The translations under genes were made by a program, and so were the position numbers. Below, piece after piece: positions 9,209-9,906 of a stretch of 64,000 bases of DNA. The notes beneath the pieces are model-generated. The model was not told the origin of the DNA. It did not search any database and saw only the letters and a list, made by a program, of their open reading frames with translations. How positions within the stretch are numbered: the first letter of the stretch is position 1; each line of letters begins with the position of its first letter. The stretch is from Burkholderiales bacterium (lineage in GTDB: Bacteria; Pseudomonadota; Gammaproteobacteria; Burkholderiales; SG8-39): NCBI GenBank assembly GCA_049651845.1, contig JBASCW010000023.1, forward strand, positions 111 to 64,110, in the 5' to 3' direction.

Positions 9209-9906
9209 ACGTCGATCATCTGAATAGTCCCAGAGCCGTCTATAACGACCAGCAACAACTGGTCTGGCGGCATGACCAGGCTGAACCGTTCGGCAACAAT
9301 CCTCCGGATGAGAACCCCTCCGGCCTAGGAGCCTTCGAGTTCCCGCTGCGTGACGAGGGGACCTACGCGGATCGCGAGATGAATCTGCTCTACAACGTCG
9401 CGCGTTATCGCGATCTGGATGCGGGCCGGTTCATTCAGGCTGATCCGATCGGCCTGAGGGGCGGCGATCTCTCGCTGTATGTGCTCAGGGGGAACAATCC
9501 GTTGAGCTACACGGATCCACTCGGGGAGTTCGTGATTGCGCTTCCTGCCATTCCAGCAATTGGCGGCGCCATTGCAGAGGCGATCGTCGGTGGACTTGCA
9601 GCCGCTGCAATACTCTCTGTTCCGGGTGATACGAAGCAGGAAGCGAAAGGTGCAAAAGCGGCCGAAGGTCCAGCTACTGGAAAGGGTCGCTATTACTGCC
9701 AGGTGCGCTGCAACGTCTATCCGATCGGTGATTGTAAGACCTGCCCGGACATCGTCTTCGGCAATGGCTATGGTCGGACTGAGAATGAGGCATGGAATAA
9801 CGCTTGGGATTCCGCAAATGCCGGAGTACCGCAGGGCTGCGGCTATCGCCATTGCCATGGTGTTGGCGGCTCCTGCAAAGGGCGCACTGGCGGCAAGGCG
9901 AGGTAA
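9209..9906 (+). pseudogene. Orphan Rhs-associated core + Cys-rich CT2, with no start codon for the full core
   Basis: In-frame YVDHLNSPRAVYNDQQQLVWRHDQAEPFG...DPIGL...YTDPLGE, homologous to 1608-1927. Upstream in-frame stop at 9094-9096; first ATG is internal (9379). Confidence 0.85.

Follow-up and report, generated by a model that had tools for sequence, protein, structure and literature searches.

Probable integrase-mediated exchange of Rhs toxin tips at an 18-bp attachment site in a Burkholderiales bacterium

Here, we analyzed a stretch of 64,000 nucleotides from a Burkholderiales bacterium (contig JBASCW010000023.1 of assembly GCA_049651845.1, positions 111 to 64,110; in the following, the window), in which an Rhs-type toxin gene is followed by a displaced second copy of its Rhs-associated core. 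Both core copies open with the same 18 bp (ACGTCGATCATCTGAATA), and the DNA between the two 18-mers is a 7.6-kb unit, E1, which encodes its own tyrosine integrase. At a probability of roughly 78%, we read this 18-mer as the crossover core of an integrase-mediated insertion and not as a tract of RecA-dependent homologous recombination. E1 would then belong to a family of integrative, self-replicating elements of about 7–8 kb, for which the two 18-mers represent the left and right attachment sites (attL and attR).

The 18-mer occurs exactly at 1608–1625 and at 9209–9226 on the forward strand, with no other match in the window at two or fewer mismatches and in 0/100 shuffles, and a third exact copy is located at position 275 of contig C48 from the same genome. 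Each of the three copies forms the opening bases of an Rhs-associated core; the cores are otherwise ~70% identical, and across the 150 nt following the 18-mer identity is 59–69%. The two cores of the window (1608–1908 and 9209–9509) align without gaps over 301 nt at 72% nucleotide identity, with values of 0.80, 0.82 and 0.48 at codon positions 1, 2 and 3, and the same codon is used at 38 of the 79 identical residues. After the 18-mer, the longest exact runs in this pair are 12, 11, 10 and 8 nt, and the 60 nt 5' of the two copies show 27% identity, which is the random level. Exact identity of the two 18-mers, many third-position differences in the rest of the core and an abrupt stop of homology 5' of 9209 had all been described in an earlier note on this DNA, made from the letters alone, and each was confirmed here; identical tracts of equal length scattered through the core, which the note had listed as speaking against its reading, are absent. 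Both copies start at codon position 2, and fusion of 2–1625 to 9227–9906 yields an open frame of 767 residues, in line with its prediction that recombination would give an in-frame Ig4-core-CT2 protein (CT2 being the toxin tip behind the second core). The usage of the codons GAT, CAT and AAT relative to the genome, a crude estimate from raw open reading frames (ORFs), is weakly supportive. The 18-bp identity would fit a 6–8 bp overlap plus one binding arm of ~11 bp of an Xer-type site.

The flanks of the 18-mers define the unit. To the left of 1608 lies the gene with immunoglobulin (Ig)-like domains, to the left of 9209 a non-coding arm and to the right of both an Rhs core, so the 18-mer is precisely the point where gene and array meet. 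The phase of a unit does not follow from tandem copies as such; here it follows from the left end of the array, and E1 is complete from 1608/1626 to 9208/9226. The copy at 1608–1625 would accordingly be the attL core, with the Ig-like/RHS gene to its left and the element-borne core to its right, and the copy at 9209–9226 the attR core of E1, which doubles as the left end of a second element, E2. The integrase gene of E1 (6949–8082, forward strand) codes for a Xer-like tyrosine integrase of 377 residues (PF00589, 2e-40), which scores 441 bits with the NCBIfam 'XerC' subfamily model NF002331 and is thus above its cut-off of 371. Its catalytic R, HxxR, H and Y (in RDRA, HLFRHA, GHA and IYT) are invariant in five copies, and the nearest solved structure is XerD (1a0p, 2.6e-39); the XerC/D-like genes of the host are separate from the element integrase and 36–41% identical. 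The integrase gene ends 1.1 kb before attR (9209). The arm fills this interval (8083–9208, forward strand) and holds a conserved motif, TACGGCGAAACCGTGTCGGG, at 9179–9198 (forward strand), which ends 10 nt before the 18-mer. This arm-end motif, with the consensus TACGRCG-N5-7-GYGTCGGG, is found at the end of every arm and includes CGACG...CGTCG.

We propose the following course of events for these elements. Each carries the 3' part of an Rhs core with its tip, one or more immunity genes, a divergent regulator, a primase-helicase gene with iterons in its 3' end, the Xer-like integrase and the arm, which ends in its conserved motif ~10 nt ahead of the junction. In the circular form, the attachment site attP would consist of the arm end, the 18-mer and the element-borne core, and the integrase would recombine it with an identical stretch (attB) of an Rhs-type gene on the chromosome. 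After insertion, the gene would be read in frame into the core and the new tip of the element, and the former core, tip and immunity gene would be pushed ~7.6 kb downstream to become a silent orphan. Repeated insertion at the leftmost site would build an array. In the window, E2 would have arrived before E1 and was later truncated by an insertion sequence (IS) element, and if E1 were excised at the 18-mers, an Ig-core-CT2 gene would result again. Of this scheme, the anatomy, the repeats, the association across the family and the junction rule are seen directly, whereas catalysis by the integrase inside the 18-mer and replication of the element in circular form are inferred.

Further copies in the same genome show the junction in other configurations. 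Contig C48 (7457 nt) has an exact terminal overlap of 106 nt and closes on itself to a unit of 7351 bp, which holds one element. Its arm runs directly into CTCACTTGTCC, the 18-mer and the core, which is the predicted form of attP, and 31 bp at this junction are identical to the main gene. C48 is either a circular episome or an identical tandem pair. Three more element contigs among the related loci are self-closing (L059, L060 and L104, with overlaps of 127–129 nt). Contig C4 contains a single insertion of 8105 bp in a classical RHS gene with YD repeats, with exactly the same 25 bp (TTCACATGAACGGGCGCATCTACGA) on either side, at 2979 and 11084. The integrase of this element is 58% identical, its arm sits inside the element between integrase and orphan, and its entry point is another place in the core (IHMNGRIYD); at DHL, the residues where the window core is entered, the C4 core reads GAC CAC CTA. 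The genus yielded no empty site; none of its 33 genomes (0/33) has an orthologue of the Ig-like gene, and the locus of one genome with two cores and an integrase but without a primase (G027) is uninformative on this point. As a separate observation, positions 1–2100 of contig C30 hold a second copy of the Ig-like/RHS gene, whose first 491 nt are 91% identical to the start of the contig of the window. In its core, a single base is missing right at the attachment position (CCACCC-GATCATCTGAAC), and a TAG stop follows 40 nt on; this copy is a pseudogene or possibly the scar of an imprecise recombination.

The same arrangement recurs in a large integrase family. Relatives were collected with an alignment of five integrases from contigs representing one genome per species, which gave at least 568 relatives. 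The best 77 loci of these, at 49–66% identity, belong to Beta-, Gamma- and Alphaproteobacteria, Acidobacteriota, Myxococcota and other groups. A hidden Markov model (HMM) of the core, built from five seeds and run on the 77 loci, gave 74 matches in 40 loci, all but one of them on the integrase strand (73/74). Typically, the integrase has a full core ~5 kb upstream of it and a core truncated at its 5' end 0.2–1.5 kb downstream, and tandem arrays show periods of 7.0–8.4 kb. A primase gene directly precedes 59 of the 64 integrases with enough upstream DNA, and an Rhs core or an arm-end motif follows within 2.7 kb in 52 of the 63 integrases with enough downstream DNA. Among 23 scored cases, the Rhs core starts 1–13 nt past the arm-end motif in 18. 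By comparison, the point at which the core is entered varies between lineages, from HMM position 5 (DHL, as in the window) to position 93, where the last 15–20 codons remain, with intermediate entry points at NENPSGLG, FPGQYYD and YNYFRDYDP. The boundary thus keeps its distance from a motif of the element while the position in the target changes, as expected from a recombinase anchored on the element. Some members of the family carry only ~15–60 nt of core, which is too short for RecA.

Within a lineage, the entry position is exact to the nucleotide. In locus L044, whose integrase is the nearest relative of the window integrase and uses the same target position, five sites begin at the same nucleotide (DHL, as in the window); in L061 there are six such sites, and the three copies in the genome of the window agree as well. 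The earlier note had proposed to check whether orphan cores in related loci begin at the same codons; they do so within lineages, and across the family as a whole they range from HMM position 5 to 93. Variation of orphan 5' ends, which the note had named as evidence against a site, is literally seen across the family, yet this criterion is too blunt. In several loci, homology opens with an exact run, namely 28 nt in L044, 17 in L067, 16 in L051, 60 in L073 and 103 in L050. The architecture is also shared by a complete genome from another bacterial family (G041), where 22 nt are repeated exactly at the junction right after the arm end. Short direct repeats (the 18-mer pair, the 25-mer of C4 and the 22-mer of G041) are found together with a tyrosine recombinase gene near one end of the unit. 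Target classes are clustered on the integrase tree, with 12 changes compared to a mean of 21.1 after shuffling and 0/200 shuffles as low. Altogether, the integrase-encoding unit between the 18-mers, the attP-form junction of C48, the 25-bp repeat of C4 and the arm-end rule of the family argue for the site-specific crossover that the earlier note had favored over a RecA tract.

The arrays contain a further type of orphan. Several orphans without backbone and arm (L044 at 1328, 2298 and 10674; L061 at 5429, 7881, 8782 and 9885) share their exact start nucleotide with orphans that follow an arm. Two such orphans, in L061 and L086, share another conserved upstream flank (...GGATTGGTAG...), which hints at a second element type using the same site.

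Several observations weigh against an integrase acting at the 18-mer. Inspection in and around the 18-mer revealed no convincing inverted recombinase-binding arms around a 6–8 bp overlap. The window pair by itself is moderately unusual, as a run of at least 18 nt arises somewhere in the core in 13.6% of codon-column shuffles. At the edge of the core, just 2–9 identical nt are found in L052, L056, L086 and L096, and the C4 core holds further exact runs of 16 and 24 nt; run length alone is thus weak evidence. With at least 12 target switches among 39 integrases that are 50–60% identical, the integrase itself may or may not read the target. A self-closing contig such as C48 also arises from identical tandem copies. 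Finally, G041 carries a repeat of 1137 bp at 99% identity, and homologous recombination or duplication shapes such loci too. As a candidate counter-example this repeat was rejected: it belongs to a separate long orphan, and the element junction, marked by the 22-nt repeat, lies elsewhere.

Considering these points, three other explanations have to be weighed. According to the displacement model of Jackson et al. (2009), circles recombine through RecA with one crossover at any point along the shared core, the 18-mer would be the start of the carried fragment, and the integrase would serve another site. This model predicts the architecture of main gene, tip and an orphan with a core fragment, and it draws on long repeats of high identity in some loci (114 nt in L096 and 103 nt in L050, besides the repeat of G041) and on the 85% identity of E1 and E2 in their primase and integrase parts, which makes homologous recombination between copies possible. 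From the long repeats at 99%, homologous recombination surely acts in these loci as well. As an explanation of the junction, it nevertheless appears unlikely to us: cores that are just 70–72% identical and share no identical tract beyond 18 nt are a poor RecA substrate, and members with some 15–60 nt of core offer even less. In addition, the junction keeps its fixed distance from the arm-end motif regardless of where the core is entered, orphans of one array share their start nucleotide, every element encodes an integrase beside the junction, and no other flanking repeat explains the transition from Ig-like domain to core.

The identity of the 18-mers could also be without function, since no motif of the core is more conserved than HVDHLN; chance or shared ancestry would then account for the match, and the boundary would be a historical accident. 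The frequency of long runs in the shuffles mentioned above agrees with this, as does a scan of metagenomes for the exact 18-mer, in which 15 of the 17 matches are chance matches and two fall in unrelated Rhs-type main genes (L135 and L140), as expected if such genes are many and the query is an exact word; for the latter reason, we do not count these two matches as selection at the DNA level. Yet a run of at least 18 nt at the 5' edge itself occurs in only 0.16% of the codon-column shuffles. Three copies in one genome share the 18-mer in spite of the low identity of the adjacent 150 nt, the pattern at the edge recurs in independent loci at other positions of the core, and the C4 core, which is targeted elsewhere, uses different codons at DHL. 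We therefore regard an accidental boundary as very improbable. Hardly credible is, finally, an attachment site in the 31-bp exact repeat at the ends of the integrase genes (8091–8121 and 15232–15262), with a unit running from arm to integrase. This 31-mer is a perfect direct repeat with the spacing of one unit and adjoins the integrase, but it cannot explain the junction of the Ig-like gene at 1608, and no arm precedes E1. Within the conserved palindrome of the arm, it is the outer box, and it also pairs with 8960–8984, and in the single insertion of C4 the arm lies inside the element. The crossover within the 18-mer remains our preferred reading.

The gene that would serve as target is the main toxin gene (2–2338, forward strand), which is 5'-open at the contig end and encodes four Big_7 Ig-like domains, the Rhs-associated core (residues 562–642, TIGR03696) and the tip CT1. 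The four Big_7 domains immediately precede the core, an order that is unusual for an Rhs-type protein; YD-type repeats (YGYDTLDRL, YSYDAVG) are present at the contig start of the protein (window 2–1607 and the preceding 110 nt), and a homologue on the metagenome contig L135 has the same Ig-to-core junction. CT1 (1925–2338, forward strand) comprises 137 residues, is rich in glycine and cysteine and has no family or PDB match; it might be a membrane-active toxin. It is followed on the same strand by two small hydrophobic ORFs read directly from the sequence, of 63 (2353–2544) and 73 residues (2592–2813), both of them candidate immunity proteins, the former for CT1. The displaced orphan (9208–9906, forward strand) has no start codon of its own and consists of a core fragment homologous to the main core and the distinct tip CT2; behind it, a Sel1-repeat protein (9915–10448, forward strand) is a candidate immunity protein for CT2. 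TIGR03696 scores 56–58 bits in both core copies, the two tips are unrelated to each other, and neither has a match in Pfam, NCBIfam, PHROG or PDB. The cassettes (1608–2813 and 9209–10448) have a guanine-cytosine content of 56–60%, compared to 67–70% for regulator, primase, integrase and arm (2829–9208) and 67.6% for the genome; the histories of cassette and backbone seem to differ.

Between cassette and integrase, E1 carries a divergent ORF of 154 residues (2829–3293, reverse strand; weak AP2/HNH-like matches only) at the place where E2 has a repressor, and a primase-helicase of 1044 residues with CHC2 zinc finger, Toprim and P-loop/DUF5906 domains (3828–6962, forward strand). Its 3' end contains an iteron block (6722–6802, forward strand) with TACGACGGCGGATCGGTCGGG followed by GGTCGG units in an 11-bp phase, which is the presumed replication origin; primase-helicase and iterons together fit a replicon. 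E2 starts at 9209, head to tail after E1, and is 85% identical to it over 4.3 kb. It encodes an XRE/RstR-like repressor (10482–10889, reverse strand), a primase-helicase (10991–14005, forward strand) and a tyrosine integrase (14137–15237, forward strand), the latter two with 88% and 91% amino acid identity to their E1 counterparts, and its iterons (13891–13971, within the primase 3' end) are TCGCGG units, likewise in an 11-bp phase. This difference between the iterons of E1 and E2 possibly avoids incompatibility of co-resident elements. The opening sequence of each iteron block resembles the arm-end motif at 9179–9198. A multi-copy element of the IS1182 family (15258–16814, forward strand) cuts off E2, whose arm and right junction are lost, and the DNA past it is unrelated housekeeping sequence. 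This IS element is inserted at CTAG right after the integrase stop codon of E2, and its other copies are often found at contig ends of the assembly; the arm of E2 and any further orphans are absent, probably through an IS-mediated deletion.

The arm of E1 holds an imperfect palindrome of 0.9 kb (fold z = −16) with two mirrored hairpins. GTTATGT/ACATAAC boxes at 8275, 8369, 8722 and 8833 form the base of the hairpin ACATAAC...GTTATGTCTGGCGCCCC. The hairpin TTCAACATAAC...GTTATGTCTGGCGCCCC, with conserved inner boxes, is present in the window at 8263–8387 and 8710–8851. In ~30 related loci, 34 copies of it are located 100–600 nt 3' of the integrase, and the helix adjoining the boxes covaries (CG 10, GC 9 and AU 6 at one pair). 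In E1, C4 and L067, the hairpin is duplicated as a mirror image within the palindrome. It may represent an RNA, a priming signal or a protein-binding site; a search of positions 1–17000 against Rfam (E <= 1) returned chance-level matches only, and none for the hairpin. The earlier note had connected these boxes with the junction of the orphan, GTTACGT (9206–9212), which differs by one base. Both sequences are present as described, but the connection is probably a coincidence, as the box is invariant in 25/25 arms whereas the junction varies with the target (GTCCACGT in C48). Compared with positions 10300–10870 of the C4 element, the E1 arm (8500–8990) is 85% identical overall and 95–98% in its second half, which contrasts with integrases and primases of the two elements that are just 57–65% identical in protein sequence. 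Either a strong constraint or a recent exchange of the non-coding arm could underlie this similarity.

A more far-reaching idea, which we put forward tentatively and think will more probably fail than hold, is that the system acts like an integron that makes protein fusions and whose site can be retargeted. The arm-end motif would anchor the integrase, and the short core fragment of the cassette would set the insertion point, so that a cassette swap would retarget the element; acting in trans, the integrase could excise and reinsert any cassette bounded by two sites. The identical start of orphans without backbone, the frequent target switches and the low guanine-cytosine content of the cassettes (56–60% vs 67% in the backbone) are consistent with this idea. 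Silent orphans would then constitute a library of toxins for shuffling, and new toxins would cross phyla on a minimal replicon.

How new Rhs tips arrive while old ones are left behind as orphans has been an open question since the displacement model of 2009. An 18-bp site together with an element-encoded integrase and replicon would supply both the circle and the enzyme, and makes the mechanism testable. If our reading of the 18-mer is true, a mobile element uses a toxin-delivery gene of its host as landing pad and expression platform, and loss of the element would mean loss of immunity to the toxin of neighbours, which would favour its retention. Considering the at least 568 integrase relatives in Proteobacteria, Acidobacteriota, Myxococcota and other groups, toxins could diversify in this way quite generally.

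The type of mechanism itself is known: an element with a tyrosine integrase enters a gene and provides it with a new 3' end. Its use for swapping Rhs toxin tips appears to be undescribed, and a full-text literature search found no description of a primase-integrase element with an attachment site in the Rhs core. In Salmonella, recombination with orphans reportedly takes place. The model of Rhs C-terminal displacement holds that a new tip on a circle shunts the old one downstream by homologous recombination of the host (Jackson et al. 2009, PMC2935791). In the window, a main gene with its tip is likewise followed by a core fragment that lacks a start codon and then by an older tip with an immunity gene; unlike in that model, the circle would be a replicon that itself encodes an integrase, and the position of the junction is exact to the nucleotide. 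Xer-like recombinase genes beside arrays of toxin and immunity cassettes are a further known pattern, which includes the recombinase-associated acquired interbacterial defence (rAID) loci. Genes for XerC/D adjoin polyimmunity loci (Zhang et al. 2012, PMC3482391), and integrase-like genes are located near Rhs loci of bee-gut bacteria, their role being left open (Steele et al. 2017, PMC5727410). The polyimmunity and bee-gut reports note the proximity, and a core attachment site, a replicon or a junction rule do not appear there. Integrative mobile elements exploiting Xer (IMEX) have no recombinase of their own and use the host XerC/D at dif, whereas the window element encodes its own. With P4-like satellites and phage-inducible chromosomal islands (PICI) it shares a small integrative unit with integrase, repressor and primase-helicase plus iterons; unlike in these, the unit holds only cassette, regulator, primase and integrase, with no packaging or capsid-redirecting genes found, the viral contigs of IMG/VR contain no close relatives of its primase, and its attachment site lies in a toxin gene and not in a tRNA gene.

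Integrons resemble the system in their Xer-related recombinase (IntI4 match), in promoter-less cassette arrays of which only the first is expressed and in boundaries fixed to the nucleotide. In contrast to integrons, attC-like hairpins are absent from the cassette boundaries, the integron-integrase models score 116 bits against a cut-off of 265 and 91 against 435, the site within a coding sequence creates protein fusions, and the integrase travels with the cassette on a replicon. Close parallels exist among elements that insert within genes. Phage 21 and e14 insert in the 3' part of icd and carry a substitute 3' end. Likewise, SGI1 in trmE and the dusA islands are integrative elements in the 3' part of a protein gene (PMC8409611). 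With these elements, the window element has in common a tyrosine integrase, an attachment site inside a coding sequence, an element copy that differs at synonymous sites and a frame that stays open. However, the icd, trmE and dusA elements restore the same protein of a housekeeping gene, whereas the window element, targeting a multi-copy and horizontally mobile toxin gene, swaps in a different toxin together with the matching immunity gene.

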